NCBI GenBank assembly: GCA_964440655.1
Contig: CAYTTA010000004.1
Coordinates: 30,700-94,699 of the forward strand
DNA: 64,000 bases
From: an uncultured Balneolaceae bacterium
GTDB taxonomy: Bacteria; Bacteroidota; Rhodothermia; Balneolales; Balneolaceae
Reading direction: 5' to 3'
How positions within the stretch are numbered: position 1 is the first letter of the stretch; every line of letters starts with the position of its first letter. Below are positions 32,739-53,749 of the stretch, piece by piece. Under the pieces are notes generated by a model. That model ran no database searches, was not told the DNA's origin, and was given only the letters and a program-made list of their open reading frames with translations. The position numbers were made by a program, and so were the translations under genes.

Positions 32739-32822
32739 TCTGTTCTCCCGCAGTCTTGTTTTTACAGGGGGTTTACCGGTCAGGCAAACCGTACCCTCGG
32801 GTTTCGGTTAGATTACTGTCGA

Positions 32823-34622
32823 TCAGATTTCTGCCAGCTCTTTTTCAAGCAATTGTTTGCGATACATCTCTGCATAGGCTCCGTTGAGTTTCAGGAGCTC
32901 TTCATGCGACCCTTTCTCCAGGAGGAACCCGTCCTCAATATAAAAAATTGTATCGGCGTTTATAATGGAGGAAATCCGGTGGCTGATCATGATGGTCGTG
33001 CGGTTCTCCAGCTCCTTGCGCAGATGCTGCATGATGTCAGCTTCCGTCTTCGTATCCACTGCGCTCAGCGAATCATCCAGAATCAGAATATCCGGATCCT
33101 TGATCAATGCCCGGGCTATGGCTGTCCGCTGTTTCTGTCCCCCGGAAAGAGTGATCCCCCTCTCTCCAACCATAGTCTCGAATTTTTTCTCAAAATCCAA
33201 AATATTCTCCAGAAGCTGTGCCTTCCGGGCGGCTGTCTCGATCTGTTCGGGGAGTGCTTCTTCCACTCCGAAAGCGATGTTCTCCCCGATCGTGGTCGAG
33301 AACAGAAAGGTATCCTGTGGTACAAACCCGATTTTTCGCCGGAGAATTCGGACGGGCCATTTTCTGATCTCCACACCGTCAATCCGGATCTCCCCTTCCT
33401 CCGGGTCGAACAGGCGGGGAATGAGCTGGACAAGGGTGGACTTGCCGGAACCGGTCGGACCGGTGATCGCGACCGTCTGCCCCTCTTCGATCCGGAAAGA
33501 GATGTTCTGCAGTGCGGGAACCGATGCGCCTGGATAGGTGAAGGTTACATCGCGGAATTTAATCTCTCCGCGCATCTTCTGAAGCGTGGAATCGGTCTGG
33601 TCATCATCCGCAATCTCAATCTCCTCCCCGAGCAGCTCTTGGATCCGGTTCCAGGAGGCAAGCGATTTCTGGAACATGTTCACTGTATAGCCGAGCGATG
33701 CGACCGGCCAGGTCAGGTAGGCGACGTAGATAATATACTCGGCGATGTTTCCCACAGTGATCTCCCCGCTCATCACCATGGTCCCCCCCTGCCAGACTAC
33801 AATGATCACCGACACACCGATAAGCAGGTTGAGTGCCGGATGAAAGAGCGATTCCACCAGGTCGAGCCGGAGTTTCTTCTTCCGGTAGGAGTCGCTCTCC
33901 CGTTCAAACCGCTCCTGCTCGTAGGGTTCCCTGTTGTAGGCCTTGATAAGTCGGATGGAGCTGAAGGCCTCGGTCGCCCTGCCGGCAAGTTCCGAATACT
34001 GCTCCTGGATGATCACCTGGTATTTGTGGATGAATCCGCTCACCCAGTAGGCAAAGGCGGAGAGAAACGGGAGCGGAAGCAGCGACCAGAGAGTAAGACG
34101 GGGGTTGACGATCACCATCATGGTGAGAATGAACCCGGCCCGTGTAAGGGTGTTGACCGTATACATGTAGACCGGTCCGAAATATTCCCGTACCCGGACC
34201 ACATCCTCTGTCGCCCGCACATAGATGTCCCCGGAAGGCCGCTCGGCAAAGTAGCGTTGCGGGAGCCGGAGCAGCTTGCGGATGATGTCGTTTCGGATGT
34301 CATACTCGATCTTTCGGGAGGTGACGATGAGTGTCTGTCTCGTGGCGAAGAGCAACACGCCGTAGAGCAGGACCGTCCCGATGAGCAGAAGGGAGTTGCG
34401 GGCGAGAATCGCTCCCGCCTGGGAGTGGAAAAAAACTTCCGACAGGCTCCCGTAGCTGAAACCCTCCAGTTCCCTCAGAGCCTCCACCTGGTCCATGGTC
34501 CGTCGGATCAGCACCGGAATCCAGACCAGGAAGAAATTGGAGGCCGTCAGGAGGACCGATCCGAGGAGGATGGTCCCGCGGTATTTTTTAAAGTAGCGGT
34601 TGAGCTGCGAGAGACTGTTCAA
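32823..34622 (-). CDS. ABC exporter, fused permease/ATPase half-transporter (MdlA-like partner)
   Basis: 599 aa with Walker A GPTGSGKST, signature LSGGQKQR and Walker B LILDDSLS. Confidence 0.9.
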   Translation of the reverse strand: MNSLSQLNRYFKKYRGTILLGSVLLTASNFFLVWIPVLIRRTMDQVEALRELEGFSYGSLSEVFFHSQAGAILARNSLLLIGTVLLYGVLLFATRQTLIVTSRKIEYDIRNDIIRKLLRLPQRYFAERPSGDIYVRATEDVVRVREYFGPVYMYTVNTLTRAGFILTMMVIVNPRLTLWSLLPLPFLSAFAYWVSGFIHKYQVIIQEQYSELAGRATEAFSSIRLIKAYNREPYEQERFERESDSYRKKKLRLDLVESLFHPALNLLIGVSVIIVVWQGGTMVMSGEITVGNIAEYIIYVAYLTWPVASLGYTVNMFQKSLASWNRIQELLGEEIEIADDDQTDSTLQKMRGEIKFRDVTFTYPGASVPALQNISFRIEEGQTVAITGPTGSGKSTLVQLIPRLFDPEEGEIRIDGVEIRKWPVRILRRKIGFVPQDTFLFSTTIGENIAFGVEEALPEQIETAARKAQLLENILDFEKKFETMVGERGITLSGGQKQRTAIARALIKDPDILILDDSLSAVDTKTEADIMQHLRKELENRTTIMISHRISSIINADTIFYIEDGFLLEKGSHEELLKLNGAYAEMYRKQLLEKELAEI

Positions 34623-34637
34623 AACGGACGAACCAAA

Positions 34638-35663
34638 TCAGCGATACCTTTCAATCCAGTCCCGGGCTAGTTTCACACCCGAACTGTATGCATGGTCAAC
34701 AAGATTGCCGCCGAAATAATCTCCGACCACAGCCAGGGGAGCTCCATCCACGGCAAATTCCATATAGGGCCGGTCGATAAACCGGTCTGTTCGGGCAAAT
34801 CTCCAGTAGTGGAGCTTGTTCCACTGCGGCCGGCCGGCCCAGCCGCCGATCACCCCGGCAGCTCTCTCCAACATCAGAGAGGCGACTTTCGACGGGTCGC
34901 TGTAGCGGTGCTCCCGGGCAAATTCAGCGGAAGAGTGGATCACCAGAGCCGTCTCCGGCAGATCTCTTTTTGAGTTTTCATTGACGATGGTCTCCAGAAC
35001 CGGATCCAGGCACCGGATCGCATCCCACTCGGGGAGCTCCAGATCTCCGTATCCGGCCATCAGGGTCCAGACCGGGTCGTACTGGATCTCGTCAATCTCA
35101 CGGATGATGGTGAACGCTTCGGTCTCATCACGGGTGGTCATCACGATGCTGTGCGCCTGGGGGGCCGGAGCGGCTACGATCACCGCATCCACCTGCAAAG
35201 TGTCAAAGTTGGTAAGGTTGATCACCCACGGTTTTTTCCGGATCCGGCCCGGACCGAAAAAGGTGACACCTCCTGCTTTCACCTCGGGGAGGATGTCCAC
35301 CCAGCGGGAGAGGTGTGTGGCGATGCGGTTCATTCCTTCGGGAGCCACATACTTGATCTGCTCATCCTGGTTCGGACCGGTCGGAGTGAGCCCTCCCTCA
35401 TCGTAGTGCCAGATTGCATCCCCCCATACCTTTACAAGGTTTTCCTCCAGAAGCTCTGCCATCAGGGCCCGGAACTCATCCGTACGGGCGGTAACCCAGG
35501 AGAGACCGTAATCGAGAATCAGGCCGTTCTCCTGCGAAACGGTTGCCAGACGCCCTCCCGGCTTGTGGGTTTTTTCTATAACGGTGACATGGTGCCCGGC
35601 ACGGGCAAGTTCTCTTCCCGCTGCCAGACCTGCTATTCCGGCGCCGATAATACCAATCTTCAT
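34638..35663 (-). CDS. NAD(P)/FAD-dependent oxidoreductase (amine oxidase / renalase-like fold)
   Basis: 341 aa with the N-terminal dinucleotide-binding motif KIGIIGAGIAGLAAGRELARAGHHVTVIEK..KPGGR. Confidence 0.75.
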   Translation of the reverse strand: MKIGIIGAGIAGLAAGRELARAGHHVTVIEKTHKPGGRLATVSQENGLILDYGLSWVTARTDEFRALMAELLEENLVKVWGDAIWHYDEGGLTPTGPNQDEQIKYVAPEGMNRIATHLSRWVDILPEVKAGGVTFFGPGRIRKKPWVINLTNFDTLQVDAVIVAAPAPQAHSIVMTTRDETEAFTIIREIDEIQYDPVWTLMAGYGDLELPEWDAIRCLDPVLETIVNENSKRDLPETALVIHSSAEFAREHRYSDPSKVASLMLERAAGVIGGWAGRPQWNKLHYWRFARTDRFIDRPYMEFAVDGAPLAVVGDYFGGNLVDHAYSSGVKLARDWIERYR

Positions 35664-35810: not shown

Positions 35811-36683
35811 TTAAACGCGACCATCCGGTACCTGGCTTTCGGCGATTGCCGGCTCTTTCCGAAACTCCTTCCCCGTGGACTTTCTCCGGTCGAGAATCCA
35901 CTGCTCCAGAACCATCGCCACGGGCCCGATCAGAAAGAGTGCATAGAACGGAGCGTAGACAAATTCGGCAAGGCGGAAGAAGAATTCGAGCAGTGCGATG
36001 AGAAAAGCGACCAGAGTCTGCCCTTTTCTGGAGGAGACGGTGGTTTTGGGATCCGTGATCATGAAGAGCACAAAGAGCTGATACATGGGGCCGGTGATGG
36101 GCGCCACTTCGGCGAGCCAGGGGTCCCCCGTGATCAGGCTTCTAAGCCAGGAGAAGGCAAAAAAGGAGAGGACATAGGTCGCGCTGATGTTGAAGCGGTT
36201 CACCCTCCAGATGGTGATGAACCCGATGATCCAGATCACCAGCATCGGCCACATGAAGCTTCCCCACTGAATGCTCAGAACCGCGGTGTGACCGGGTGCA
36301 AGAAGAAGAGTGGCGACCACTCCGAAATTGGTGGGGTTCCAGATGTGGCGCCCCTTGTAGCGGAGCACATATTTTGAGGTGATGGAGACCATCGCGCAGT
36401 AGGCGAACGGCCAGAAGTAGGGAGAGCGGATCAGGATTCCGGTGCTGATCCCGGAAATGTAGGCACTGCTCAGGTTCCGCCATCCGCCATGAACAAGACG
36501 GTAGAGGACCAGTTCGGTCAGGATGCTGGCGCTGATTGCCAGCAGCAGTTTCTGCCAGCTGTCAAGGATTCCGAAGGTGAGATGGGAGGCGAGCAGGATC
36601 CCTGTGATGACCAGCGGAGAGGTGTAGCTTTTCAGGAACTGAAGGCTGAATCTGCGTTCTGTAGATGCAAGGACGTTGTTCAT
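35811..36683 (-). CDS. polytopic membrane protein with RnfD/NqrB-like motifs (possibly UnbU-type)
   Basis: 290 aa with about 8 hydrophobic segments and the motifs HIWNPTNFG and FMITDPKT, which recall RnfD/NqrB. It lies 25 nt downstream of the CRTAC1/ASPIC gene. The UnbU assignment comes from remembered annotations, not from a search. Confidence 0.5.
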   Translation of the reverse strand: MNNVLASTERRFSLQFLKSYTSPLVITGILLASHLTFGILDSWQKLLLAISASILTELVLYRLVHGGWRNLSSAYISGISTGILIRSPYFWPFAYCAMVSITSKYVLRYKGRHIWNPTNFGVVATLLLAPGHTAVLSIQWGSFMWPMLVIWIIGFITIWRVNRFNISATYVLSFFAFSWLRSLITGDPWLAEVAPITGPMYQLFVLFMITDPKTTVSSRKGQTLVAFLIALLEFFFRLAEFVYAPFYALFLIGPVAMVLEQWILDRRKSTGKEFRKEPAIAESQVPDGRV

Positions 36684-36708
36684 GGGTCGGATCTGGTGGG
36701 GCGATGAA

Positions 36709-38607
36709 TTATGGTCCGGTGTCGGCTCCGGCCGGTCGGGAACGGCTCTTTCCTGAAACGTCTGTGGGATCTGTCGTTACGGCACGGGCCGCTTCATCCG
36801 CCGCGAAGGCTCCGGGTTCCCGGATCCGGTGAGCGCGGTTGGGCTCGGGCCGGTCGATCTGCTGCCGGATTCCGGAAGGCCAGATGATCTCGGCACGCTC
36901 GATCCGGGCATCTCTGCCGAGCCCGAAATGGAGCGGCCTCTGACTCTGGGAACTGAAGGCATCCCCTCCTGCAACGGTTTTCACCTGCACCTGTCCGCCC
37001 CTTTCCGGGGTGCTCCAGTAGAGCCGGAGAGCAGCCCCGATGGCACTTCGGTTGCTCCCGGTTCCCTCCAGGTGAAAAGAGATCCAGTCGTTCTCTTCCC
37101 GGGCATGGTTCCGGTAGATCCGGACCGGTCCGTTCTGGTTGGCCACGATCAGATCCAGAGAGCCATCCCCGTCCAGATCCCCGAAAGCCACCGCCCGGCT
37201 GTCCAGATTGAGCATTCCCCCCACCGCTGCGGCCACCTCTCGAAATCTTCCGGCACCGTCGTTGATCCAGATTTTGTTGTTTTGATACCCGGAGAAGGTG
37301 CGTCCGTTCATGGCCGGCCAGTTCATCGCATCGATGATCACATTCCGGTGCCCGCCCACCACCTTGGCGTAATCGTACCAGTAATCGGTACCCGGTTCGT
37401 CCGATACATAGCCGTTGGCCACATAGAGATCCAGAAAGCCGTCATTGTTCAGATCGGCAAACTGACCGCCATACCCCCAGTCTCCGATCTCCACCCCCAT
37501 GCCGGGAGCGAGGTTTCGGTAACGGATGGTCCCCTCATCACTCCGTCGGGAAGGAACCCAGAGGTTGTTTCCCTGCATCAGCACCCCGGCTTCGGAGATA
37601 TTGGTCACATAGATGGAGAACTCTCCCCGATTCATGATATCCCCGAAGGCAACGCTCATTCCGCTCTTGGGAATGAATCCGATTCCGCTTTCTTCGCTCA
37701 CATTCCGGAATCTGCCTCCTTCATTGAGAAAGAACTCGTCCGCACCGTAGTCATTGGCGATGACCAAATCGGGATAGCCGTTCCCGGTAAGATCAGCCGC
37801 AGCGGCTGCAAGTGTCCATTTTCGGGTGGTCAGACCTGCCTGTTCGGTCACATCGGCGAACCTACCGTCCCCCCTGTTTTCCAGCAGCCAGTTCCGTCCT
37901 CCGTTGGTGGCATACTCATAGCTGTCGGGCATGATCCGGGTTGTGGTGAGATTCCACAGGTCCACATCCTCATGGTAATAGCCGCCGATGAAGAGATCGA
38001 GGAGTCCGTCACCATTGTAATCCAGCCAGACTGCCGTGTTGGCATTGACCCAGTCGGGAAGGCCGGCATTCTCCACGCGGGAGAATCCCTCTCCCCGCTC
38101 ATTCCGCCAGAGCTCCGGACGCCCCCATTTGTAGAGAAAAAGATCCTCGAACCCGTCGTTGTCGAAATCACCCCAGACCGCGCCCATGGAAACCCCGGTC
38201 CCTTCACGGTTCAGGTCCGCGATCCCCAGCTCCCCGGCCACATCACGAAACCCTCCCTCTCCCAGATTGAGATAAAGAGCGTTGTGCGAACCGGACCGGC
38301 TGTTGGTCAGATATAGATCGGGAAGGCCGTCGTTGTTGAAATCAACAATGGAGACCGAGGCCCCTACGGATGCAATCTGGGGAAGGATGTGGTCCAGCCG
38401 TGGGTCGAGCTGCGGCCGCTCGTGAACGAATGTTACACCCCACTCCTCTGAAACCTCCTCCAGATAGAATCCATACCGCTCGATTGCCTGCTCCCGCAAT
38501 TCGAAAATCTCGGGTGCACGGACCTTCTCCAGCCATCGGATCCCGGCAGGAGCCGATAGCAGCAGCAGGAAAAATAGTGTGACCCCTAACTGTTTGATCT
38601 GTAGCAT
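36709..38607 (-). CDS. CRTAC1-family protein (FG-GAP/VCBS repeats plus ASPIC/UnbV C-terminal domain), exported
   Basis: 632 aa with an N-terminal signal/anchor. It has repeated D.NNDG..DL/Y..N motifs (FNNDGLPDLYLTN, DFDNDGFEDLF, DYNGDGLLDLF, DLNNDGFLDLYVAN, DLDGDGSLDLIVAN). The C-terminus (SNRSAIGA.L....G.......GG.FSSQS...LHFGLG) is typical of ASPIC/UnbV. Confidence 0.8.
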   Translation of the reverse strand: MLQIKQLGVTLFFLLLLSAPAGIRWLEKVRAPEIFELREQAIERYGFYLEEVSEEWGVTFVHERPQLDPRLDHILPQIASVGASVSIVDFNNDGLPDLYLTNSRSGSHNALYLNLGEGGFRDVAGELGIADLNREGTGVSMGAVWGDFDNDGFEDLFLYKWGRPELWRNERGEGFSRVENAGLPDWVNANTAVWLDYNGDGLLDLFIGGYYHEDVDLWNLTTTRIMPDSYEYATNGGRNWLLENRGDGRFADVTEQAGLTTRKWTLAAAAADLTGNGYPDLVIANDYGADEFFLNEGGRFRNVSEESGIGFIPKSGMSVAFGDIMNRGEFSIYVTNISEAGVLMQGNNLWVPSRRSDEGTIRYRNLAPGMGVEIGDWGYGGQFADLNNDGFLDLYVANGYVSDEPGTDYWYDYAKVVGGHRNVIIDAMNWPAMNGRTFSGYQNNKIWINDGAGRFREVAAAVGGMLNLDSRAVAFGDLDGDGSLDLIVANQNGPVRIYRNHAREENDWISFHLEGTGSNRSAIGAALRLYWSTPERGGQVQVKTVAGGDAFSSQSQRPLHFGLGRDARIERAEIIWPSGIRQQIDRPEPNRAHRIREPGAFAADEAARAVTTDPTDVSGKSRSRPAGADTGP

Positions 38608-38629
38608 GGCCGGTCTGTTTTCGGACCCT

Positions 38630-41600
38630 TCAATCCACTCTGGCGAGTCTTTCGAGGCTCCGGTCTGCCGGATCCCGATTCAGGACTTCAGGATCCGTTT
38701 CTCCACTCCCCCGCCCGACAGACAAAAGCTTTGCGGATCCAGGTTCTGCGGTCTCTTCGGCCAAACCCTGACTCTTCCGGTCGAACAGAAGAGTGTTGCG
38801 GAATGGACGGGGAGAGACATATCGTGTATGATAATATACCCAATCATCCCGAAACCTCTGAAAAACCGGGTCCTCAAAAAGTGACGTCCCCGAGGGATAA
38901 TCGTAATCGGCCTGCCCGTGCCAGGGAAGCGGCTCCACGGTTGCCGAGGCCTGGGTGTTGATGTCGCCATCCTTGACCCAGCCGTCCGAGATGAAGATAA
39001 AGGTCCGCTTCCACCCCTCTTCCGGCGGCTCCGGTGCCTCATACTCCAGATGAAGCTCATCCCCTGCATTCATGATCACATAGCGGTCATCAATCCCGGC
39101 CAGAAGTTCATCCACCTCGCCGAACCGGGTGTGGAAACCGCGCAGGTCGAGCCATCGCGGGGTGGTCCCGGAGAGAGTGCTGTAGTCGGGCAGCATCGGC
39201 GATCGTTCATCCGGCCGGTACCACCTGGAAAAGCCTCTGTACCTCAATTCCTGCCGGACCGGCCGGAGCGGCCGCTCGACAAAGGAGGCGTCGGGGAGTT
39301 TCTTAGCCCATTCGATGGAGTCCCAATAGATCTCCGACGTGGTGTAAAACCGGATCCGCCGGTCGGAAGGGTCAGGAAACACTCCTTCCAGGTCAAGCAG
39401 GATCGTTTTCAGCTTCCCGGCCGGAACTCCATATTGGTCATGAAGCCTTTTCCAGCCTCCCCTTCCATCGGCCACCTCGATCCTCAGTCCGGAAGGGGGA
39501 TCATGACTCCCCTGGCTCAGGGCAAGGTTGATGGAGCTGTCGGTTGGACGGAGCCAGCCGTAGGCCAGCAGCCAGAGAGGGGCATCCTCCGGAGCTTCAC
39601 TGCCGATCTCAATTTCGATGAAGTGCTCCTCCACCAGCCCCTGCCATTGTGTTTTCCGGAAAGGAGCCAGAAAATCCCCGTCCCTCTTCTCTACATACCG
39701 GGTCACATCCCGTCCTGCGGTGTCGGTCACCCGGCTCACCGGCCGTGGCGTTCCCATGATCCGGGTCGAGAGATCGGGCGAGGGGAAAGCAAAACGCTCA
39801 TCGACAAAAACTTCGGTTCCTTCCGGATGATCGACCGCGATCAGGGAGGTGTGGTCAAAAAAGTGTGTCTCCCAGAGTTCAGCGGTGATTCTCAGGTCGT
39901 AGACACCGTTCACAGGCGCGAGCTTCTCTCCGGGAATCCTGACGCGGTCCAGAGTCTGGACCACCCCGGCGGTCTCCAGGGCATTGATCCGGAGGCCCAA
40001 AGGTGCACGCCAGAGTGCATCGGTGATGAAATGAATCTGCTCGCCATCGTTGGTGAAGAGCCAGGGGCAGGATCCTTTCAGAATCTGCTCATTCTGGATG
40101 GTGGAGCCGACGCCCAGTTCGGCAAATCCGGTCTGGGTCGATCCGTTCGGCCAGATGATGCGGACCAGATCTGCCTCCTCCTGCAGGCCGATCCCGAAAT
40201 GGACGATGGGAGAGCCGATGGGCTGTTTCCGGTAGAGAAGCCCTGCACGGATCTCCATCTCCCCGCCGATCCCGAAAGAGTTGATCCTTCCGTCCCCTTC
40301 CGTGCCGGATGCCCGGGCACGCAGGGAGAGCCCCCGGTAGTCGGGATTTCCGCGGTTCATCAGCCCGAAGGGATTTCCATCGGGATCCACCCCGATCAGG
40401 TCGAGCCGCTCATCCCCGTCCAGATCGAAAACCGAACGAATCCCCCCCGGAAGGGAGATGGCGGCGTGATCGAAGCGGAAACGACTGCTACCCGGATGGA
40501 GCATGCTCCACTCCGGGGTGGCAAGCAGCAGATCGAATGCGCCGTTGTTGTCCAGGTCCTGTACAAAGAGGGAAACCGATCCCCGTCTGTACTCATCCGC
40601 ATCCCGGCCGCTCTCACTCCCGCTCTCTCCCGGAGCCGGGGTGCGCTGGCCTGGAGTTTCCACCAGCCGCTCCTCCGGCCACGGCTCGCCGGGGGGGCGC
40701 GGCAGATAACGGACAATGGAAAGATCCTCGTGGACGGCCAGAACCTCATACTCACCGTCCCCATCCAGGTCGGCTACAGCCACCGTACGAATCCCTCTGA
40801 TCCTGGGGAATGAGGCGATCCGTTCGAAGCGGAGGCCCCGCAGATTGCGAAAGTGAAGAAGCTCTCCCTCATCGGTCAGGAAGAGAGCATCGGTGGCTCC
40901 CTCACCGTCCAGATCCGCCCAGTGAAACTCCACAACGGAGGGGGTGTCCGGAAAGGGAGTGATCGGCGTGAAGGTCCCGTCACCGTTGTTGCGCAGAACC
41001 TGAACATCCCTTCCGGCCGAGGCGAGCAGCAGGTCGAGATCTCCGTCCTGATCCAGATCGGCGGCCCACACCCCGCTCCAGGGGCGATTTCTGATCGATG
41101 CAGGGACTCCGGTATCGGAGGTCACATCGGTGAACGTGCGGTCCGGGTTCTGCCGCCAGAGATGAAAACCGCCTTCCCACGCCATTGCCAGATCATTCAG
41201 AAAATCGTTGTTGTAATCGATCTCGGTCAGGGCGGACGAAGGGATCGGTTCCGGCCCTCCGGCTCTCCCTGAGCTGTCCGTGGATCCCAGCGGGAAAGGC
41301 AGCTGCGTTCCGGCATCGATGTAGAGCCGGGAGTCGTGAAGGGCAACCGGGATGGGAGGAAGCTCTTCCAGCAGGGTCACCGACTGCAGGAGGGCAACCG
41401 GTCCCTCAACGTCGGCAAGAAGATCTGCAGGGTCAAAGGCAATGCCTGTATCGGCTTCGGCTGCAATAAATTCAGGCTGTGGAAGAATAAGAAATCGAGT
41501 AACGGGATACCCCACCTCACCCGGGGGTGGGCGGAGATCCTCCACGCCTGCCTGAAATGAAGGGACCGGCTCAAGCATGTTCCGGAGAAAAGAGAGTTCC

Positions 41601-42328
41601 AGCCGGATCTCATTGAAATCCCCTCTCCCGGCAGCCTCCTCCAGCAGGGAAAGCTGCTCTTGTGCTTCCGGGCTCCAGGATCCGGAAAAGGTCGTCAATG
41701 TTTCGAGCCATCGACGGAATCCGGACAGATCCTCCTCCTTGGCGGTTATACGGGCCAGTTCATAGAGAACCGGCTGATTCTCCGGATCGAGCCGGTGGAG
41801 ACGGAGCAGCTGTTCGCGAATCTCTTCGGCATGTGCGGTGTCATCTTCCCGCTCCAGCTCGGTGGCCAGCGAGTAGAGAATCATTCTGTTATCCGGATCG
41901 GACTCCGCGGCGCGACGGAAATAATCGATCGCGGGTCCTGTGCGGCCCCACCGGCTCTGGAGAAGGCCTGCAAGATGAAGAAGATCGGGGTGATCGGGTG
42001 CCAGTCGGAGAGCCCGTGTGAAGTGCTCCTCCGCCTGTTCAAAGGCGCCCTGCCGCATTGCAAAGAGGCCGAGATTGGCCCAGGCGGCCGCTTCTTCGGG
42101 GAAGGCTTCGGCGACCTGATTCATTTTCTCAAAGGCGAAGAACGCCTCATCGGTCTGCGCGGCCGCCAGACTGATATAGAAATCGGAGACCGCCTGTCTG
42201 TATCTCTCCGAACCGGGATCCACCTCCCCGCTCCGGGAACATCCTGCCGGAATCAACAGAATGAAAAGAAAAAAGATCAGCAACGGCGGGGTGCCGGCAG
42301 GGGGTACAGATAGAAAACGGTTGGTCAT
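38630..42328 (-). CDS. large lipoprotein: TPR region, FG-GAP/VCBS repeats, ASPIC/UnbV-like segment and a ~450-aa uncharacterised C-terminal region
   Basis: The start was set at ATG 42328 (MTNRFLSV...LLIPAGCSRS, with a lipobox) because the longer ORF overlaps eboF. TPR-like helices span roughly aa 60-300. FG-GAP motifs include DYNNDFLNDLA, DLDQDGDLDLLLA, DLDGDGEYEVLAV, DLDNNGAFDLLLA and DLDGDERLDLIGV. An ASPIC-like segment reads NSFGIGGEMEIRAG...VHFGIG...IIWPNG. Confidence 0.8.
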   Translation of the reverse strand: MTNRFLSVPPAGTPPLLIFFLFILLIPAGCSRSGEVDPGSERYRQAVSDFYISLAAAQTDEAFFAFEKMNQVAEAFPEEAAAWANLGLFAMRQGAFEQAEEHFTRALRLAPDHPDLLHLAGLLQSRWGRTGPAIDYFRRAAESDPDNRMILYSLATELEREDDTAHAEEIREQLLRLHRLDPENQPVLYELARITAKEEDLSGFRRWLETLTTFSGSWSPEAQEQLSLLEEAAGRGDFNEIRLELSFLRNMLEPVPSFQAGVEDLRPPPGEVGYPVTRFLILPQPEFIAAEADTGIAFDPADLLADVEGPVALLQSVTLLEELPPIPVALHDSRLYIDAGTQLPFPLGSTDSSGRAGGPEPIPSSALTEIDYNNDFLNDLAMAWEGGFHLWRQNPDRTFTDVTSDTGVPASIRNRPWSGVWAADLDQDGDLDLLLASAGRDVQVLRNNGDGTFTPITPFPDTPSVVEFHWADLDGEGATDALFLTDEGELLHFRNLRGLRFERIASFPRIRGIRTVAVADLDGDGEYEVLAVHEDLSIVRYLPRPPGEPWPEERLVETPGQRTPAPGESGSESGRDADEYRRGSVSLFVQDLDNNGAFDLLLATPEWSMLHPGSSRFRFDHAAISLPGGIRSVFDLDGDERLDLIGVDPDGNPFGLMNRGNPDYRGLSLRARASGTEGDGRINSFGIGGEMEIRAGLLYRKQPIGSPIVHFGIGLQEEADLVRIIWPNGSTQTGFAELGVGSTIQNEQILKGSCPWLFTNDGEQIHFITDALWRAPLGLRINALETAGVVQTLDRVRIPGEKLAPVNGVYDLRITAELWETHFFDHTSLIAVDHPEGTEVFVDERFAFPSPDLSTRIMGTPRPVSRVTDTAGRDVTRYVEKRDGDFLAPFRKTQWQGLVEEHFIEIEIGSEAPEDAPLWLLAYGWLRPTDSSINLALSQGSHDPPSGLRIEVADGRGGWKRLHDQYGVPAGKLKTILLDLEGVFPDPSDRRIRFYTTSEIYWDSIEWAKKLPDASFVERPLRPVRQELRYRGFSRWYRPDERSPMLPDYSTLSGTTPRWLDLRGFHTRFGEVDELLAGIDDRYVIMNAGDELHLEYEAPEPPEEGWKRTFIFISDGWVKDGDINTQASATVEPLPWHGQADYDYPSGTSLFEDPVFQRFRDDWVYYHTRYVSPRPFRNTLLFDRKSQGLAEETAEPGSAKLLSVGRGSGETDPEVLNRDPADRSLERLARVD

Positions 42329-42359
42329 TCGCTCGCTTCGCTCACGTGGTTGCGGACTG

Positions 42360-43736
42360 TCAGGATGTGACGTGGTTATAGATAATATCGTAGATCCCGG
42401 TCGGATCCACCACCGGAATGTCCGGCAGGAATTCGGGATTCCCGGTGGCAACAAGGGGACCGGCTCCCTCTGCGATATCCGCTCTCCCGTGGGAACCCTT
42501 CACGCCGGATCCCTCGATCGGAACGAGATCCATCCGGTAACGGAACCCGAGCTTTTTCCCCAAAACCTTCCGGGCGACTTTGAGCCGCGGGAAGCGGATC
42601 GACGGATTGAGGAGGAGTTCGGCCGGATCGTACCCCGGTTTGGTGTGAATATCCACGGTCGGGGCGAAGTCGGGAGCTTTGGAGTCCGACAGCCAGTAGT
42701 AGTAGGTGAACCAGGCATCCGGTTCGGCAATGGCGACAAGCTCTCCGGCACGCGGGTGGTCCAGGTGGTGGTGCCTTTTTCCCTCCTGGTCGAGGACCTT
42801 CTCCACACCGGGGACCTTCTCGATCAGCTCTTTTACAGGTCCGATCTGCTCATTGTCCCGGATGTAGATGTGTGCGATCTGATGGTCTGCAACCGCAAAG
42901 GCGCTGCTTGATCCGGGAATGAGGACCTCCCCTCCCACCTCCTCCCGGACGGTAATGTAGCCGTGTTTCCGGAGTACTCTGTTCAGGGAGACCGGCCGGC
43001 GGACCGGGGCGATGCCATATTCGGAGAGGAGGATGATCCGGTGTCCAAGCTCCTCATAGAAGCGGATAAGATCCCCACAGACAGCGTCCACCTGGCGAAG
43101 GTCTCTCGTGATGCCGGGATCTTCCGGCCCGATCCTCTGCAGGTTGTAATCCAGATGCGGAATGTAGATCAGCGTCAGAGTGGGATCGAACTCGCGGGTA
43201 ACCCGCCGGGCTGCCTGTGCGATCCATTCACTCGATCGGATGGAGGTGAATGGCCCCCAGAAATCAAAAAGCGGAAAGGTGCCCAGCTCCTTTTGCAGTT
43301 CGTCGCGCAGCGAGGCAGGCTGGGTGAGGATATCGGGGATCTTGACACCGTCCGCCCGGTAGATCGGCCGCGGGGTGATGAGATAATCCACGGTGGAGTT
43401 CATGTTGTACCACCAGAAAAGGTTGGCGCAGGTGAAGCCGGGATCGGCCTCTTTAAGCACCTCCCAGATCTTGGGTGCCTGGATGAGGCGATTGGACTGC
43501 CGCCAGAATTTTATCTCATCCATCTCGCGGAAGTACCACCCGTTTCCGACAATTCCATGGACATCGGGCATCATACCGGTAAGATAGGTCGCCTGTACCG
43601 AGCAGGTGACGGCGGGAAGCATGGGCCGGACCGGACGCATTGCCCCGTTCTTTACCCACTTCTCCAGAAAGGGGGTGTTGCGTCCGATCAGATCGGGGGT
43701 CAGGCCGACCACATTGAGTACGACTGTTCTCTTCAT
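42360..43736 (-). CDS. eboF: alkaline-phosphatase-superfamily nucleotide pyrophosphatase/phosphodiesterase (EboF-type)
   Basis: 458 aa with an NPP-like N-terminus (VVLNVVGLTPDLIG...PAVTCSVQATYLTGMMPDVHGIVGNGWY) that includes the catalytic-Thr context. It has a 4-nt overlap with eboE. Confidence 0.75.
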   Translation of the reverse strand: MKRTVVLNVVGLTPDLIGRNTPFLEKWVKNGAMRPVRPMLPAVTCSVQATYLTGMMPDVHGIVGNGWYFREMDEIKFWRQSNRLIQAPKIWEVLKEADPGFTCANLFWWYNMNSTVDYLITPRPIYRADGVKIPDILTQPASLRDELQKELGTFPLFDFWGPFTSIRSSEWIAQAARRVTREFDPTLTLIYIPHLDYNLQRIGPEDPGITRDLRQVDAVCGDLIRFYEELGHRIILLSEYGIAPVRRPVSLNRVLRKHGYITVREEVGGEVLIPGSSSAFAVADHQIAHIYIRDNEQIGPVKELIEKVPGVEKVLDQEGKRHHHLDHPRAGELVAIAEPDAWFTYYYWLSDSKAPDFAPTVDIHTKPGYDPAELLLNPSIRFPRLKVARKVLGKKLGFRYRMDLVPIEGSGVKGSHGRADIAEGAGPLVATGNPEFLPDIPVVDPTGIYDIIYNHVTS

Positions 43737-45058
43737 CGCTTCTCCCGAAGTCTGTCCAGATTATAGATAATCTGCCCGCATGCCCAGCGAAGCTCCCGTT
43801 CCAGCGAAGAGAGCAGGTTGGGGCCATGCTCCCCGGAGTTTGCCTGTCCCTCTTGTCCGGCCCGTTGTACACCCGTCTCTTCCCTTCCGTTTGCCGCCGG
43901 ACCGGGAAGAACCTCCCAGGTATAGGTCTCCACCTCGTAGTGGCTGCAGCCGCTCTGCTCCAGCAGGACCGGCAAACCCTTTTCGATCTGGTCACGGGTT
44001 GTTTCCAGCTCTCCGAACCGGTCCCGATAGACCGGCAGGTGAAAATGGACCCGCCACTCCTCCGGACGGGCCCTGCCCTCACCCTCTTCTCCGAGCCGGG
44101 AGAGGGCCTCGGGCAGATCACGGTACCGGCAAAGAGTGCCGTTACTGCGCCTCTCCACAACCTGGTGCAGGTAGACTGGTTCATCAAACCGGGAGATGTT
44201 TTCCGAAAATCTTTCTGCCGCAATAGATTTCGACTTCGCTTTCAGAGCGGCGCTTATCTGGACCTTGCCGATCCCGATCCCCTCACGAAGTATCCGCCCG
44301 ATCGCCTCTTCGGGCTCTTCATACCCCACCGCCAGATGGCAGGTGTCGTAGCAGATCCTCACATGCCTCCGCAGGATGGCTTCCGCTGCCGCAGGTGAAA
44401 CTCCCTTCTCGCGGCTCATAAACATGCTTCCGACAGGGAAAAGCTTCTCCGTGAAAAAAACGACCGTCTCCCTGCTCTGCTCCAGTATGCAATCCGGTTC
44501 GGGTTCGATATCCAGATGTAGTTCCCTTCCCGATCTCTGTTCGACAAGGTGCATCTGCCAGGCCACTTCCGCAAGCCGGTGGCAGCACTCCCGGTAGTAC
44601 GCTTCCGGAACAGGCCGGGGAATCTTTCCATACTTGTAGCCGAGCGGGGAGGTGGAGATCCCACCGTCCACCCCCTCCGGAAGGAGCTCTTCCAGGATCC
44701 GTGTCAGATTCAGGGTGTACTCGAGCCTCTGATCGGTGCTCCAGTCCGGTTCATAGACCTGCTCCTTCACCCTGCCGCGATGGAATTGACCGTAGGGAAA
44801 TCCATTGATCGTGAAAAGGTAGAGTCCGTTCTCCTTCATCCAGTCGGAAAACTTCTCCAGACGCCCTTCCTTCAACAGGTCCCGGGCCGCCCGGTCCGAA
44901 ATCCGGACACCCAGCCCGAAAGGTGCATCGGGAGCCAGCCTCTCCCTGAGCGGAGGGATCCAGGTTTTCAGTTCCCCAAAATGTTCGTCCCACTCCTCGC
45001 CAGGATGAACGTTGCTGCAATAGGTCAGATGGAGTGCCGGATTTCCTTCAAGTTTCAT
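43733..45058 (-). CDS. eboE: xylose-isomerase-like TIM-barrel protein (EboE-type)
   Basis: 441 aa with an N-terminal LTYCSNVHPGEEW motif, as I recall for the EboE family. It has 4-nt overlaps with both eboD and eboF. Confidence 0.7.
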   Translation of the reverse strand: MKLEGNPALHLTYCSNVHPGEEWDEHFGELKTWIPPLRERLAPDAPFGLGVRISDRAARDLLKEGRLEKFSDWMKENGLYLFTINGFPYGQFHRGRVKEQVYEPDWSTDQRLEYTLNLTRILEELLPEGVDGGISTSPLGYKYGKIPRPVPEAYYRECCHRLAEVAWQMHLVEQRSGRELHLDIEPEPDCILEQSRETVVFFTEKLFPVGSMFMSREKGVSPAAAEAILRRHVRICYDTCHLAVGYEEPEEAIGRILREGIGIGKVQISAALKAKSKSIAAERFSENISRFDEPVYLHQVVERRSNGTLCRYRDLPEALSRLGEEGEGRARPEEWRVHFHLPVYRDRFGELETTRDQIEKGLPVLLEQSGCSHYEVETYTWEVLPGPAANGREETGVQRAGQEGQANSGEHGPNLLSSLERELRWACGQIIYNLDRLREKR

Positions 45059-46227
45059 GAGTTGAACTGTTTAAGCTCTTCGCATGCAGCCAGATAGATC
45101 TCTTCATCCACCTGGTTCACCTCCAGGCCGGTTCCGATTGCCTGAAGGAGCATGATGGTGAGCTCACCACCCAGATGTTCACGGAACTCCTCCAGTCCTT
45201 CCAGTAGCGGCGCCTTTCCGTTTCGATTGCCGCATCCCTCCATCCCGGGGTGATGAAGCCGGAATCCCAGGCTTGCGAGCAGACGGAGGATCCTCCTCTT
45301 GCTCTCTTCCGGCAGCAGACCGGCGAGAGCGGAGTAGGTCACATCCAGAGCGATTCCGATCGCCACCGCCTCTCCGTGACGAAGATCGTATCCGCTGAGC
45401 TGCTCCAGTTTGTGGGCCGCCCAGTGCCCGAAATCGAGCGGACGGGAGGAACCGGACTCAAACGGATCCCCCGAACCGGAGATATGTTCCAGATGAAGTT
45501 CGGCGCAGCGGTAGATCAGCTCCTCCATCGCTTCCATTCTTCGCTCTCCCAGTGCCTCCCTCAGCTCCTCAATCCGGTTGAAAAAACCTGCATCACGGAT
45601 CAGAGCGACTTTTACTGCTTCGGAAATCCCCGAGATCCAGTCCCGCTCTTCCAGCGTGGTCAGGAACGAAGAGTCGTTCAACACGGCATGGGGAGGTACA
45701 AACGTTCCGAGAAAATTTTTTTTCCCATAGGCGTTGATTCCGTTCTTCACCCCGATCGATGCATCGTTCTGTGCCAGAACCGTCGTAGGGATGCGGATCA
45801 GCCGGATGCCGCGATGTGCGATCGCCGCGGCGAATCCCACGGTATCGATCAGGGATCCTCCCCCGACCGCCGCCACAAAGGAGTGCCGGTCCATCCGGTT
45901 TCGCTCAATGGCATCGAGTATCCGCCTAAGCTGTTCCGGATCGTTTTTGGACTGCTCCCCGCCCGGAACAAGAAGCGGAGGATCCACCAGTTCGAAGAGC
46001 GGTTCCCCCCTCCGCTCCCACTCTTCACCATAGTTCCGGATCTTCCGGAACAGGTCCGGATGATGCCGGGCCATTCCCTCATCCAGGACCACCAGCAGGC
46101 GCGGCAGCGCCCGGCCGGATCGGCGGAACGAACCGGCAAGTACCGGATTGGCAGGATTGAAAAGATCCCTTGTAAAATGAACCGGATAGTGAAAGGAGAC
46201 GGCAATGTTCTGCTGGATGATCTTCAT
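45055..46227 (-). CDS. eboD: 3-dehydroquinate-synthase-like sugar phosphate cyclase (EboD-type)
   Basis: DHQS core: VAAVGGGSLIDTVGFAAAIAHRGIRLIRIPTTVLAQNDASIGVKNGIN plus metal-binding His residues (HWAAHKLE). The start was set at ATG 46227 (MKIIQQNIAVSFHYPV). Confidence 0.8.
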   Translation of the reverse strand: MKIIQQNIAVSFHYPVHFTRDLFNPANPVLAGSFRRSGRALPRLLVVLDEGMARHHPDLFRKIRNYGEEWERRGEPLFELVDPPLLVPGGEQSKNDPEQLRRILDAIERNRMDRHSFVAAVGGGSLIDTVGFAAAIAHRGIRLIRIPTTVLAQNDASIGVKNGINAYGKKNFLGTFVPPHAVLNDSSFLTTLEERDWISGISEAVKVALIRDAGFFNRIEELREALGERRMEAMEELIYRCAELHLEHISGSGDPFESGSSRPLDFGHWAAHKLEQLSGYDLRHGEAVAIGIALDVTYSALAGLLPEESKRRILRLLASLGFRLHHPGMEGCGNRNGKAPLLEGLEEFREHLGGELTIMLLQAIGTGLEVNQVDEEIYLAACEELKQFNS

Positions 46228-46345
46228 GCTGATGTCAGACAGAATAGACAGTTCGCGATAAATCAACGGAAGATGACCGGCCAAACTCCTATTTTTGCCT
46301 CTTTCAACGGTCACTCTTCACCCCACTCCTGAAATCGCCAACCCT

Positions 46346-47308
46346 ATGAGTACCCGGATTATATACAGAAAAAATACACATTTTCTAAGCTGTGACTGGG
46401 GAACCAGTTCATTCCGGCTGCTGCTCGCCGGGCGAGACAGCGGCGAAGTGGCCGCTGCTCTCTCCTCGGCCAACGGTGCAAAAGAGGTCTACGGAAGATG
46501 GAAGGAGCAGAAGAAGGTTGATCAGACAACCTGGTTTCTCCGGTTTCTGGAGGAGAAAATCGGGGAAATGGAACGGCAGGTTTCAGCCGATCTGAGTGAG
46601 ATACCTGTCATCGTCTCCGGCATGGCATCCTCCACCATCGGCATCAAGAGCCTCCCCTACTCGCCGGTTCCTCTGGATCTGGCCCGTCCCCGCCTGCAGT
46701 ACGAGAGATTCTCCGGCGATGAGATCTCCAATCCGGTGCTGCTCGTCTCGGGAGTCTCCACTCCGGAGGATGTGATGCGTGGGGAGGAGGTCCAGCTGAT
46801 GGGACTGCATCGGGTCTACGGCCTGGACTCAGCCCTCTATCTGCTTCCCGGCACACACAGCAAGCATCTTTTCGTTGAAAAGGGAAAGCTGACCGGTTTC
46901 CGGACCTATATGACGGGGGAGATCTATCAGATCATCGGAACACACTCTATTCTGCAGGCCGGCCTGGACCGGCCGGAGAAGGGGCCCGACCGGGAGAGCT
47001 TCCTGCAGGGAGTTCGTGAGGCAAGGGAGGGCAATCTTCTGAACTCGCTTTTTGCCATCCGGGCCCGCGAGCTGGTCGGCAGTCCGGACGATCCCGCTTC
47101 ACGCTCCGACTATCTCAGCGGACTGCTGATCGGAACCGAACTCCGGGATCTCTCCTCCGCCGGTGAGGTGATTGTCTCGGGCGGAAGCTCACTGCAGGCA
47201 TACTATACCCTTGCACTGGAAGAGCTTGGCATCCCCTTCCGGACCGATCCCGATCCCGCCCGCCGCACTCTGGACGGGCATCTTCAGCTGCTTCCAATGC
47301 TGGAATAA
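46346..47308 (+). CDS. dgoK: 2-dehydro-3-deoxygalactonokinase-like sugar acid kinase
   Basis: The DgoK-type N-terminus FLSCDWGTSSFRLLL and a length of about 320 aa. The start was set at ATG 46346. Confidence 0.7.
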   Translation: MSTRIIYRKNTHFLSCDWGTSSFRLLLAGRDSGEVAAALSSANGAKEVYGRWKEQKKVDQTTWFLRFLEEKIGEMERQVSADLSEIPVIVSGMASSTIGIKSLPYSPVPLDLARPRLQYERFSGDEISNPVLLVSGVSTPEDVMRGEEVQLMGLHRVYGLDSALYLLPGTHSKHLFVEKGKLTGFRTYMTGEIYQIIGTHSILQAGLDRPEKGPDRESFLQGVREAREGNLLNSLFAIRARELVGSPDDPASRSDYLSGLLIGTELRDLSSAGEVIVSGGSSLQAYYTLALEELGIPFRTDPDPARRTLDGHLQLLPMLE

Positions 47309-47391
47309 TAAGGTCTGCACCAAACACTTTCCCGGATCTGAATCCATCAGGCCTGCAATGGATCGAGTGGCTCCAGCCGGGCCTGAACCGG

Positions 47392-48036
47392 TCATGCCTG
47401 AACCAGGTCCAGCGACTGGCGAACAATCTTGCGGATCCCTTCAAAATCCCGGTTCTCCAGAAGCTTCGAAGGCACCAGCCAGGAACCACCCAGAGCGGCC
47501 ACCATCGGATACCCGAGATACTCTTCCAGATTGGAGAGATTGATCCCTCCCATCGGGATGAAGAGAACCCCCGTATGGCGATAGGGTCCCTGGAGGCTCC
47601 GGATAAAATCGGTTCCGCCCAGATTATTGACCGGGAAGAGTTTCTGAAGGAGCAGATTCCGTTCCAGTGCCGCCTCGATCTCGGAAGGGGTCATCACCCC
47701 CGGAATGAATGGAAAATCGAGTTCCTCCGCCTTGTCGAGGACCGTTGGATTGAAACCGGGAGCCAGACCGTAGCGGGCACCCGCCCCGATCGCCTCCTCC
47801 ACCTGCCGGGGGGAAAGGATGGTTCCGGCACCCAGATTCATCTCGGGAAAACGGCTGGAGATGGCCCGTATCGCTTCTGCCGTCGCTTCGGTGCGGAAAG
47901 CCACTTCCATGGTATCCAGCCCCTCTTCCAGCAGGAGTTCGGCCAAGGGGACGGCCAGTTCGGGATCATGCAGGGTCACTGCGGGCAGGAGTTTCTTTTC
48001 AAACGTGAGGGGCATCTTTTTTTCCTGTTGTTTCAC
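47392..48036 (-). CDS. eda: KDPG / KDPGal / 4-hydroxy-2-oxoglutarate aldolase (Eda family)
   Basis: 214 aa with an Eda-like pattern: LPAVTLHDPELAVPLAELLLEEGLDTMEVAFRT, GAGTILSP.Q and FIPGVMTPSEI. A Schiff-base Lys context lies near KLFP. Confidence 0.85.
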   Translation of the reverse strand: MKQQEKKMPLTFEKKLLPAVTLHDPELAVPLAELLLEEGLDTMEVAFRTEATAEAIRAISSRFPEMNLGAGTILSPRQVEEAIGAGARYGLAPGFNPTVLDKAEELDFPFIPGVMTPSEIEAALERNLLLQKLFPVNNLGGTDFIRSLQGPYRHTGVLFIPMGGINLSNLEEYLGYPMVAALGGSWLVPSKLLENRDFEGIRKIVRQSLDLVQA

Positions 48037-48090: not shown

Positions 48091-49101
48091 TTGAAAGTTT
48101 ATACCGAATCCTCCATTTTTACAAACCGATCCGGCTCCATCCTCCAACCAAATCCTCCCGATGTGATTAACCTCCCCGATCCACCACCCGATCCCGGTCC
48201 TTCCGGTCCGGACCATCCCCGGGACAGCGTCGATGAACTGAAGAAGCGGATGCTTGTCTGGCTCGGGGAGCGGCTCGATTCCCCGGCATTCGAGAAGATT
48301 GAAACGGCTGCACGGAGGATGGAGGGCGCGGAGGAGTGGGAACTCTTCACCTCATTCAGCTCGGTACCCCGCTGGACCGGAAAGAGTCTGCTTGGACTCT
48401 CCTCTACCGAGGAGGACGAGGCGGATCGGCTTGTGAACGGGTGGAAACCCGGCAGATGGAGCCTGGACCAGCTGGGCCGTACACTTCTGGTACTCTCCCT
48501 GGCACGCAGAGGAAAAGAGAAGTTTTTTGATCTGCTGGAGAAACTTTTCCTTTCGGCCGATGCGGGAGAACAGGTTGCTCTCTATCAGGCTCTTGCCGTA
48601 CTTCCCTGGCCGGAAGAGCATCAGAGGCGGGCGGCCGAAGGGATCCGCAGCAACATGAGTCCGGTTTTTCAGGCGGTCGCTCTCCACAATCCCTGGCCTG
48701 CCCTCTACTTTCCGGAGGATGCATGGAATCAGATGATTCTCAAGGCTCTCTTTATCGGTGTGCCGCTCTGGCAGGTGGAGGGGATCGACCGCAGACGGAA
48801 CGAAAAACTGGCCGGAATGCTGATCGACTTTGCCCAGGAACGATGGTCGGCCGGAAGAGAAGTTCCCCCCGAACTCTGGCGTATGGTGGCTCCTTTCATG
48901 GATGATGACCGTGTCCGGGACATTGCCAGGCTTCTGCATCATCCGGAAGAGCTCCAGAGGCAGACGGCCCTTCTGGCTCTTACCGCCTCCGAACTGCCTT
49001 CTGCACGGACCCTGCTGGAAGCGGCCTCCCGAAGCGGCCAGCTGAAGAATCTTCCCGACTGGGATGAAATCGGCCGGAGGGCGGCGGCTCTTTCCGGATG
49101 A
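48091..49101 (+). CDS. eboA: EboA-like protein (start uncertain: TTG 48091 or ATG 48250)
   Basis: An alpha-helical ORF immediately upstream of the TatD-type and UbiA-type genes, which is the position EboA takes in ebo clusters. The call rests mainly on synteny. Confidence 0.5.
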   Translation: MKVYTESSIFTNRSGSILQPNPPDVINLPDPPPDPGPSGPDHPRDSVDELKKRMLVWLGERLDSPAFEKIETAARRMEGAEEWELFTSFSSVPRWTGKSLLGLSSTEEDEADRLVNGWKPGRWSLDQLGRTLLVLSLARRGKEKFFDLLEKLFLSADAGEQVALYQALAVLPWPEEHQRRAAEGIRSNMSPVFQAVALHNPWPALYFPEDAWNQMILKALFIGVPLWQVEGIDRRRNEKLAGMLIDFAQERWSAGREVPPELWRMVAPFMDDDRVRDIARLLHHPEELQRQTALLALTASELPSARTLLEAASRSGQLKNLPDWDEIGRRAAALSG

Positions 49102-49153
49102 TGGAAAGTGCCGTTCCACTTCAGATAACCTCCAACTTATCCTTCTGCACGTC

Positions 49154-50107: not shown

Positions 50108-50151
50108 TCATCCGCTTATCTTCAACCGATCATCAACACAACCGTCGCACC

Positions 50152-51781: not shown

Positions 51782-51922
51782 TTCGGCACCGTTGTTTTCG
51801 GAATCCGTTCCTCCAGAAATGTCATGGCCGGTTGCGGATGAAATTTGCCGGGGTGTTGCGTTATCCGGATCATTTTCCGGTCGGAGTTCAGGTCGGAGAT
51901 GTCTCTTCATGATCAGGAAAGG

Positions 51923-53620: not shown

Positions 53621-53714
53621 CGGCTTGATCCGTTTCCGTGGTTTGCTGCGGACAAGGGATCCACAGCGATACGCAAATCCCACAATCGGAAAGAAAAGGA
53701 AAAGAAACAATATC

Positions 53715-53749
53715 AAAAAAAAAGCCCGTCACTGGGATCAGGACGGGCT
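53715..53749 (-). terminator. Rho-independent terminator downstream of the RidA/CBM9/BASS gene string
   Basis: Minus strand reads AGCCCGTC-CTGATCCCAGT-GACGGGCT followed by TTTTTTTTT. It lies about 45 nt after the stop of the RidA gene at 53795. Confidence 0.7.

Follow-up and report, generated by a model that had tools for sequence, protein, structure and literature searches.

Six minus-strand genes run as a string of about 10.4 kb, from 46227 to 35811, in the window, a stretch of 64,000 nucleotides (nt) from an uncultured Balneolaceae bacterium (contig CAYTTA010000004.1 of assembly GCA_964440655.1, positions 30,700 to 94,699 of the forward strand): eboDEF, one half of the ebo (eustigmatophyte/bacterial operon) gene set, and after it three genes encoding a lipoprotein of 1232 amino acids (aa), an exported CRTAC1-family protein of 632 aa and a polytopic membrane protein of 290 aa. 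The last three genes form a widespread and undescribed cassette, related to the enediyne genes E4 and E5, which is the notable object at this locus; its linkage to ebo is an optional variant found in one family. We regard the string as the juxtaposition of two independently conserved modules, eboDEF and a three-gene envelope cassette, an explanation that we hold with about even confidence. An earlier note, made from the DNA letters, had presented the arrangement as one that had not been described, and the literature search likewise retrieved no paper on it, nor on a cassette pairing ASPIC with RnfD-like proteins: the ebo operon was named in 2016 in a paper that mentions no FG-GAP, ASPIC or CRTAC1 neighbours (PMC5133447), and a 2026 preprint on the pathway mentions neither FG-GAP, ASPIC or CRTAC1 neighbours nor Balneolales (10.64898/2026.05.21.724671).

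Composition and spread of the three-gene cassette

The first cassette gene (TPRFG; 38630-42328, minus strand) was assigned from Pfam matches, its lipobox and its homologues. The encoded protein carries TPR repeats, an FG-GAP_3 propeller and a weak UnbV_ASPIC match, and begins MTNRF...LLIPAG-C; 43 of 66 homologues have a Cys after a signal peptide, bearing out the lipoprotein assignment of the earlier note. Homologues in the cassette loci share 38-59% identity over 93-95% of its length (tblastn). Searched by sequence against the PDB, the lipoprotein gave TPR matches only, and its C-terminal region of about 450 aa (about residues 745-1190), which the earlier note had failed to recognise, matched no Pfam family and no PDB sequence. 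A profile of this region retrieved 4390 representative proteins at E<=1e-3 (1607 at E<=1e-30), nearly all 1100-1250 aa long and carrying the domain at their C-terminal end; among the matches listed, identity to the region was 48-66%. The AlphaFold2 model of the region is all-beta (predicted local distance difference test score, pLDDT, 74), with a well-modelled core at about residues 10-375 of the fragment, and as modelled it looks like about three beta-sandwich domains. Foldseek found no solved structure resembling the whole region (template modelling score, TM, below 0.2), the likeness being limited to fragments of jelly-roll, discoidin and carbohydrate-binding module (CBM) folds. The last 65 or so residues of the lipoprotein are predicted to be disordered.

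The second gene (ASPIC; 36709-38607, minus strand), assigned by Pfam and by its CRTAC1 match, encodes a protein with an N-terminal hydrophobic signal, an FG-GAP_3 match of 148 bits and a UnbV_ASPIC (PF07593) match of 59.7 bits. Its homologues in the cassette loci are 53-70% identical (tblastn). The sole PDB relative found by sequence is human CRTAC1 (9etn_A, E=2.5e-15), with which it shares an FG-GAP beta-propeller followed by an ASPIC/UnbV domain. The bacterial proteins differ from CRTAC1 in that their genes and that of a membrane protein make up a fixed three-gene operon, the first gene of which adds TPR repeats and the C-terminal region of about 450 aa for which there is no solved relative.

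The third gene (E5mem; 35811-36683, minus strand) was assigned from JGI names, Pfam and structure comparison. At least 8000 homologues of the 290-aa protein were scored; JGI names its homologues 'enediyne biosynthesis protein E5', in line with the UnbU-type label of the earlier note, while NCBI names several of them 'RnfABCDGE type electron transport complex subunit D' (e.g. P0017, P0023, P0073). Pfam PF03116 (NQR2_RnfD_RnfE) matches the C-terminal half only, with 29.7 bits against a cut-off of 27.7, and the sequence likeness to RnfD does not reach beyond the 'TDP' helix region at the C-terminus (E=0.008). The AlphaFold2 model (mean pLDDT 82) has 11 helices, and its top 15 PDB matches in Foldseek were all RnfD or NqrB (E 3e-7 to 1.6e-4, TM 0.57-0.68; among them 8rbq_D, 9eri_D and 7xk3_B), urea transporters ranking below them. 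The threonine to which flavin mononucleotide (FMN) is covalently attached in these subunits is defined by the motif [ST]GA[TS], which occurred in 0 of 39 aligned family members; no Rnf/Nqr partner subunit was found adjoining the gene, in the window or in 80 cassette loci, and the matched RnfD/NqrB chains are of 304-412 aa compared with 290 aa here. Lacking both the FMN motif and partner subunits, the protein is not a redox-pump subunit, and a true Rnf/Nqr subunit was rejected on these grounds: the protein shares the RnfD/NqrB fold and the C-terminal helix motif, but it is shorter, is always paired with exported propeller proteins and falls outside the working RnfD/NqrB family. The earlier description of the protein as RnfD/NqrB-like was thus upheld by structure comparison for the fold and does not extend to redox pumping. 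The same two absences make the NCBI 'RnfD' names a likely case of systematic misannotation, which is flagged here for several such membrane proteins.

The spread of the cassette was surveyed with a profile of 39 E5mem proteins, from which 80 loci were collected from species-representative genomes: about 23 from Balneolales, about 55 from Acidobacteriota or unplaced genomes (Pyrinomonadaceae, Terriglobales and one labelled Vicinamibacterales), one labelled Planctomycetaceae and one Casimicrobiaceae. In 66 of 73 loci the ASPIC gene immediately precedes the E5-type gene, and a TPRFG homologue lies upstream in the same order in 63 of the 64 loci with enough DNA (tblastn with the window proteins); the median intergenic distance within the cassette is -4 nt. 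Clustering of all flanking open reading frames (ORFs) revealed no fourth gene kept with the cassette across phyla. This constant order, together with the absence of a cross-phylum fourth gene, marks the cassette as a unit in its own right.

Regular neighbours of the cassette are lineage-specific only. Those of Balneolales include SusC/SusD pairs, ASPIC paralogues of 1110-1130 aa, two LacI genes, a 3-keto-disaccharide-hydrolase/PA14 protein and a DUF7133/cupredoxin protein. SusC/SusD pairs come after the cassette in eight Balneolales loci (L007, L010, L014, L022, L023, L024, L039 and L050; L-numbers are the labels of the fetched comparison loci and contigs), and two LacI regulators lie upstream of it in L005, L008, L014 and L020.

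Two enediyne genes, E4 and E5, which we take to be UnbV and UnbU, offer the closest parallel to the cassette, in that the gene for a UnbV_ASPIC protein adjoins the gene for an E5-type membrane protein; the likeness is drawn from the JGI names and the PF07593 match. Compared with the enediyne polyketide synthase (PKS) cassette (E3/E4/E5/E/E10), there is an additional gene here, for the TPR lipoprotein, and it is Gram-negative Balneolales and Acidobacteriota that serve as hosts in place of actinomycetes. No PKS, thioesterase (E10) or E3 was present among the window genes scanned (26.6-60.1 kb) or among the recurrent genes of the 80 loci, so that an enediyne-type cluster was rejected. E4 and E5 are essential for enediyne antibiotics, and E3, E4 and E5 belong to a five-gene cassette common to all enediynes (PMC5181780). 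Relatives of E4/E5 in a fixed cassette with a large lipoprotein, itself from a family with thousands of representatives, provide a wider and more tractable setting in which to study them.

Some features of the cassette vary between lineages. In Balneolales, the lipobox Cys is followed by an Asp- and Glu-rich stretch (for example CSSEPEDIS or CQAPDDDVD), which is lacking in the Acidobacteriota homologues and is similar to the signal by which Bacteroidetes export lipoproteins to the surface. A second, divergently oriented paralogue of the large TPR/FG-GAP protein (1160-1290 aa) lies just upstream of the cassette in five Pyrinomonadaceae loci (L019, L027, L028, L040, L041). About 17 Terriglobia/Acidobacteriota loci (L030, L033, L034, L042, L045, L049, L061, L062, L082 and others) share a same-strand set directly upstream of it, comprising an alginate-export-type porin, a His-rich membrane protein, a YtkA-like protein, a Cys-rich polytopic protein with CxxC motifs and a small exported protein; a family scan of this upstream operon matched the YtkA-like protein and the alginate-export porin only.

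Linkage between ebo and the cassette

In the window, eboD (45055-46227, minus strand) is the first gene of the string; the protein is 390 aa as called in the sister contig L167 and matches Pfam DHQ_synthase and DHQS_C as well as NCBIfam NF004852 (556 bits). It is followed by eboE (43733-45058, minus strand), a xylose-isomerase-like TIM barrel scored as the NCBIfam equivalog NF035939 TIM_EboE (449 bits against a cut-off of 250), and eboF (42360-43736, minus strand), of the type I phosphodiesterase/nucleotide pyrophosphatase family (PF01663, Phosphodiest, 221 bits). The second half of the set, eboABC, is also in the window, about 2 kb from eboDEF on the plus strand (48091-51174): eboA (48091-49101; PF28008 EboA on the identical gene in L166 and L167), eboB (49064-50107; Pfam TatD_DNase) and eboC (49978-51174; a UbiA prenyltransferase by Pfam), all three with uncertain start codons. 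All six families EboA-EboF are therefore present, and the finding of eboABC on the other strand makes the ebo set complete but split. The order eboD-eboE-eboF, each stop codon overlapping the next start, is usual in ebo clusters; unlike those, the six genes here are not one contiguous operon, eboABC and eboDEF being divergent halves separated by dgoK and eda, and three non-ebo genes begin 31 nt after eboDEF. Other taxa too have varied ebo gene orders (tblastn of ebo loci; PMC5133447), and tblastn matched eboABC in many loci. In three other Balneolaceae contigs (L170, L174, L175) eboCBA and eboDEF are directly divergent with nothing between them.

The ORF map reproduced the coordinates and spacings given in the earlier note, and the Pfam and NCBIfam scans agreed with its gene labels. 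Overlaps of 4 nt join eboD to eboE and eboE to eboF; 31 nt separate the eboF stop from the ATG of the lipoprotein gene (42328), 22 nt the stop of the latter (38630) from the ATG of the ASPIC gene (38607), and 25 nt the ASPIC stop (36709) from the ATG of the membrane-protein gene (36683). The absence of terminators from these gaps, another of its observations, was matched by a consensus scan, empty in all three, and by RNA folding, in which their stability was not above that of shuffled sequence (z = 0.49, -0.43 and 1.45). A sigma-70-like promoter candidate (TAGAAA-18-TATAAT; 46387-46358, minus strand), recognised by its consensus match at 10 of 12 positions, lies upstream of eboD in the divergent region common to dgoK and eboD. 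The Bacteroidetes-type -7 motif TANNTTTG has four matches in the window against 9.6 expected and none near the junctions, and is uninformative as to an internal promoter. Judged from the sequence, co-transcription of eboDEF and the cassette is plausible in this genome, where transcription from the eboD promoter probably continues into the cassette.

The earlier note had held that an adjacency unique to this genome would indicate a fortuitous juxtaposition. The neighbourhood check found ebo and the cassette to be neighbours in at least 10 Balneolaceae-type genomes or contigs, in three gene orders, so that the adjacency is neither peculiar to this genome nor an accident of it. The order of the window, eboDEF followed by the cassette, is limited to its own lineage (L166, L167), to which the 31-nt junction is private; eboDEF was upstream of the cassette in 0 of the 80 survey loci. 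A second order, the cassette followed by eboDEF on the same strand, is found in L086, L168 (Rhodohalobacter sp. 8-1), L169 (GCA_041686215), L171 and L172, and the junction between the two modules there is of 125-276 nt. Four of these loci (L168, L169, L171, L172) have the succession GMC oxidoreductase and small subunit, cassette, eboD, eboE, eboF and a 1112-aa ASPIC paralogue (contig L169 ends just past eboF), after which 3-keto-disaccharide-hydrolase/PA14 and DUF7133/cupredoxin genes follow in L168 and L171. In the third order the cassette is followed by two genes and then by eboCBA on the other strand: this is the case in L005 (a Balneolaceae metagenome-assembled genome, fetched apart from the 80-locus survey), L008 (Aliifodinibius sp.) and L020 (Halalkalibaculum sp.), with eboCBA about 4 kb downstream, and in L170 (Aliifodinibius salicampi), with eboDEF coming after eboCBA. 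Two irregularities were seen among these loci: a HicB-like antitoxin gene between eboE and eboF in Rhodohalobacter sp. 8-1 (L168, 11577-11831), and several cassette or ebo genes in pieces in L172 and L005 (4736-8187), which points to assembly-error frameshifts or decay.

Both sides of the linkage were sampled. On the cassette side, ebo was near in 3 of the 14 Balneolales loci that extend 5.7 kb or more downstream and in 0 of about 57 non-Balneolales loci. On the ebo side, among the best 80 metagenome loci by nearness to the window EboF (33 of them at least 12 kb long), a cassette accompanied only the closest (L086, 71% identity), where eboDEF comes after it. Elsewhere, some 70 cassettes and some 79 ebo loci are unlinked. 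The contigs L168, L169, L171 and L172 were chosen on a prior hint of contig sharing and constitute a biased sample; unbiased picks put the linked share of Balneolaceae at about one in four (1 of 4 on the ebo side, 3 of 14 on the cassette side). Three cultured strains, Rhodohalobacter sp. SW132, Fodinibius sediminis and F. roseus (L173, L174, L175), have ebo without a cassette within 10 kb, their ebo genes adjoining araBDA arabinose genes and a sugar symporter; in F. sediminis the cassette membrane-protein gene is on another contig than ebo. In a neighbour-joining tree of ASPIC plus E5 the linked cassettes fall in three separate Balneolales clades, and their sister loci bear SusC/SusD where ebo sits in the linked ones. 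The linkage is recurrent, confined to Balneolaceae among the groups sampled, optional and variable in order. Cultured strains with it (Rhodohalobacter sp. 8-1, Aliifodinibius salicampi) and the three without it offer a natural experiment.

Explanations for the juxtaposition

In the reading as two juxtaposed modules, eboDEF is the cytoplasmic half of the ebo pathway, which according to the 2026 preprint ends in saccharoquinoline/thallusin after prenylation by EboC. The envelope cassette contributes three proteins: a lipoprotein that combines TPR repeats with a Ca-type beta-propeller, an ASPIC segment and some three beta-sandwiches at its C-terminus; a further exported protein, of propeller/ASPIC architecture and similar to CRTAC1; and an inner-membrane protein of RnfD/NqrB fold that cannot carry covalent FMN and has no Rnf/Nqr partners. 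The pairing of ASPIC protein and membrane protein echoes that of E4 (UnbV) and E5 (UnbU) in enediyne cassettes. The membrane protein may anchor or feed a complex that the two propeller proteins would form at the outer face of the inner membrane, and this complex may bind, translocate or modify a ligand outside the cytoplasm, a role that would be generic and not specific to ebo. In Balneolaceae the modules would stay close through a common regulatory and metabolic island of periplasmic sugar-oxidation and uptake genes, and any functional link between ebo and the cassette would be facultative at most. The suggestion of the earlier note, an envelope system in which a lipid-linked ebo metabolite is handled by the FG-GAP/ASPIC proteins, finds some basis in the recurrent adjacency in Balneolaceae, though as a minority hypothesis, and does not hold generally: since 79 of the 80 nearest ebo loci lack the cassette and the cassette nearly always occurs without ebo, the three genes are not general ebo accessories.

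Several observations weigh against so loose an association. The two modules meet in three orders and three clades, always within 5 kb, which is above random placement (chance adjacency within 10 kb is estimated at about 0.5% per genome) and speaks for something beyond passive neighbourhood. At 31 nt, the junction of eboF with the lipoprotein gene is operon-like, and in the cassette-first loci ebo is sandwiched between the cassette and the 1112-aa ASPIC protein; both fit a dedicated link better. The enediyne genes E3, E4 and E5, for their part, are described as conserved genes of undefined function (PMC9992847).

The alternative that survives best, although we consider it unlikely, is that the cassette is a true ebo accessory in Balneolaceae, the farnesylated EboC product being passed via the E5-type protein to the propeller/ASPIC proteins, which would export it, perform a late oxidative step (saccharoquinoline to thallusin) or recapture the metal-bound product. 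Besides the recurrence in at least 10 genomes or contigs, three arrangements and three clades, and the terminator-free 31-nt junction, this would suit what is reported of the pathway. The preprint ties ebo to thallusin and saccharoquinoline, shows eboB, eboC, eboE and eboF to be each essential and EboC to farnesylate hydroxyquinolines, and cites EboD as a mannose-6-phosphate cyclase that leads to a cyclitol, EboE and EboF acting later; no enzyme is known for the oxidative ring-opening from saccharoquinoline to thallusin, and thallusin chelates metal (10.64898/2026.05.21.724671). The enediyne relatives E4/E5 work together with a PKS, the substrate being a lipophilic polyene (PMC5181780, PMC9992847), and ebo had earlier been linked to scytonemin-precursor transfer and to the movement of a metabolite to the periplasm (PMC6282210). 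Most ebo clusters, however, including the nearest metagenome eboABCDEF operons and those of F. sediminis, F. roseus and Rhodohalobacter sp. SW132, have no cassette nearby, and the cassettes outside Balneolales have no ebo; the confirmed thallusin producers need the ebo core genes only (10.64898/2026.05.21.724671), and a redox cofactor motif is evident in none of the cassette proteins.

Rather unlikely as well is a nutrient-uptake locus, in which the cassette and the 1110-1130-aa ASPIC paralogues would belong to SusC/SusD-type loci, similar to polysaccharide utilisation loci, for the uptake and oxidation of glycans or glycosides, and ebo would be a passenger, both preferring the same carbohydrate islands. 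The SusC/SusD pairs and LacI regulators of the Balneolales loci favour it, as does the fact that in L010 and L022 SusC/SusD lies between the cassette and the long ASPIC paralogue, the slot held by eboDEF in the Rhodohalobacter-type, cassette-first loci. The recurrent GMC pair and the 3-keto-disaccharide-hydrolase/PA14 and DUF7133/cupredoxin neighbours, the araBDA genes and sugar symporter next to unlinked ebo clusters, and the weak resemblance of the C-terminal beta-sandwiches to CBM and discoidin folds are of the same tenor. On the other hand, SusC/SusD is absent from the window genes scanned and is not near the cassette in most Acidobacteriota loci, no glycoside hydrolase is kept with the cassette, TonB-dependent receptors are so common that some adjacency is to be expected, and the CBM-like matches have a TM below 0.2 over the whole region.

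A further reading, which we consider improbable, joins the enediyne parallel to ebo: pairs of UnbV/UnbU type would be a general, multi-phylum machine acting at the outer face of the cytoplasmic membrane to process or move lipophilic metabolites, and the cassette would provide Balneolaceae with the missing late step of the ebo/thallusin route, oxidative ring-opening or export. If true, it would also point to the role of E4/E5 in enediyne biosynthesis; the ebo pathway, tied to a product (thallusin) only now and by a preprint, meets the UnbV/UnbU (E4/E5) question at one locus. Finally, a working redox or ion-pump subunit of RnfD/NqrB type, as implied by the NCBI names, the PF03116 score just over the gathering cut-off and the best fold matches, is highly improbable given the motif missing from all 39 family members, the want of any other Rnf/Nqr subunit in the loci searched, the shorter chain and a sequence similarity restricted to the 'TDP' helix region.

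Neighbouring genes in the window

The space between the two ebo halves is occupied by dgoK (2-keto-3-deoxygalactonate kinase; plus strand, ATG near 46340, within 46295-48036; Pfam DGOK, 202 bits) and eda (KDPG aldolase; 47392-48036, minus strand; NCBIfam TIGR01182, 206 bits). Downstream of the string, a gap of 147 nt after the membrane-protein gene is followed by same-strand genes (29728-35663, minus strand) that Pfam assigns to a short protein similar to flavin adenine dinucleotide (FAD)/amine oxidases (34638-35663), an ABC half-transporter (32823-34622), a metallo-beta-lactamase-fold protein (31518-32738) and a second ABC half-transporter (29728-31521). Such a combination would suit export or tailoring. 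Only in contigs of the same organism (L001-L004, L166) does it directly adjoin the cassette; in L016 a FAD protein and an ABC gene were seen about 8 kb from the cassette.

Beyond eboC lie genes for a GMC oxidoreductase and a protein similar to gluconate-2-dehydrogenase subunit 3 (51191-53716, minus strand; Pfam). The same GMC pair is immediately upstream of the cassette in L168, L169, L171 and L172, and 3-keto-disaccharide-hydrolase/PA14 and DUF7133/cupredoxin genes are further recurrent neighbours in Balneolaceae; as a group, these genes point to an island for sugar oxidation in the periplasm.

Rfam and tRNA scans of the window gave no match. Copies of TANNTTTG, rarer than chance, are at 19915, 25869, 29656 (-) and 46290 (+), and three of the four sit just upstream of gene starts, including those of dgoK and prfB. 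Two RidA/YjgF paralogues follow the GMC pair in the window (region 51191-54974).

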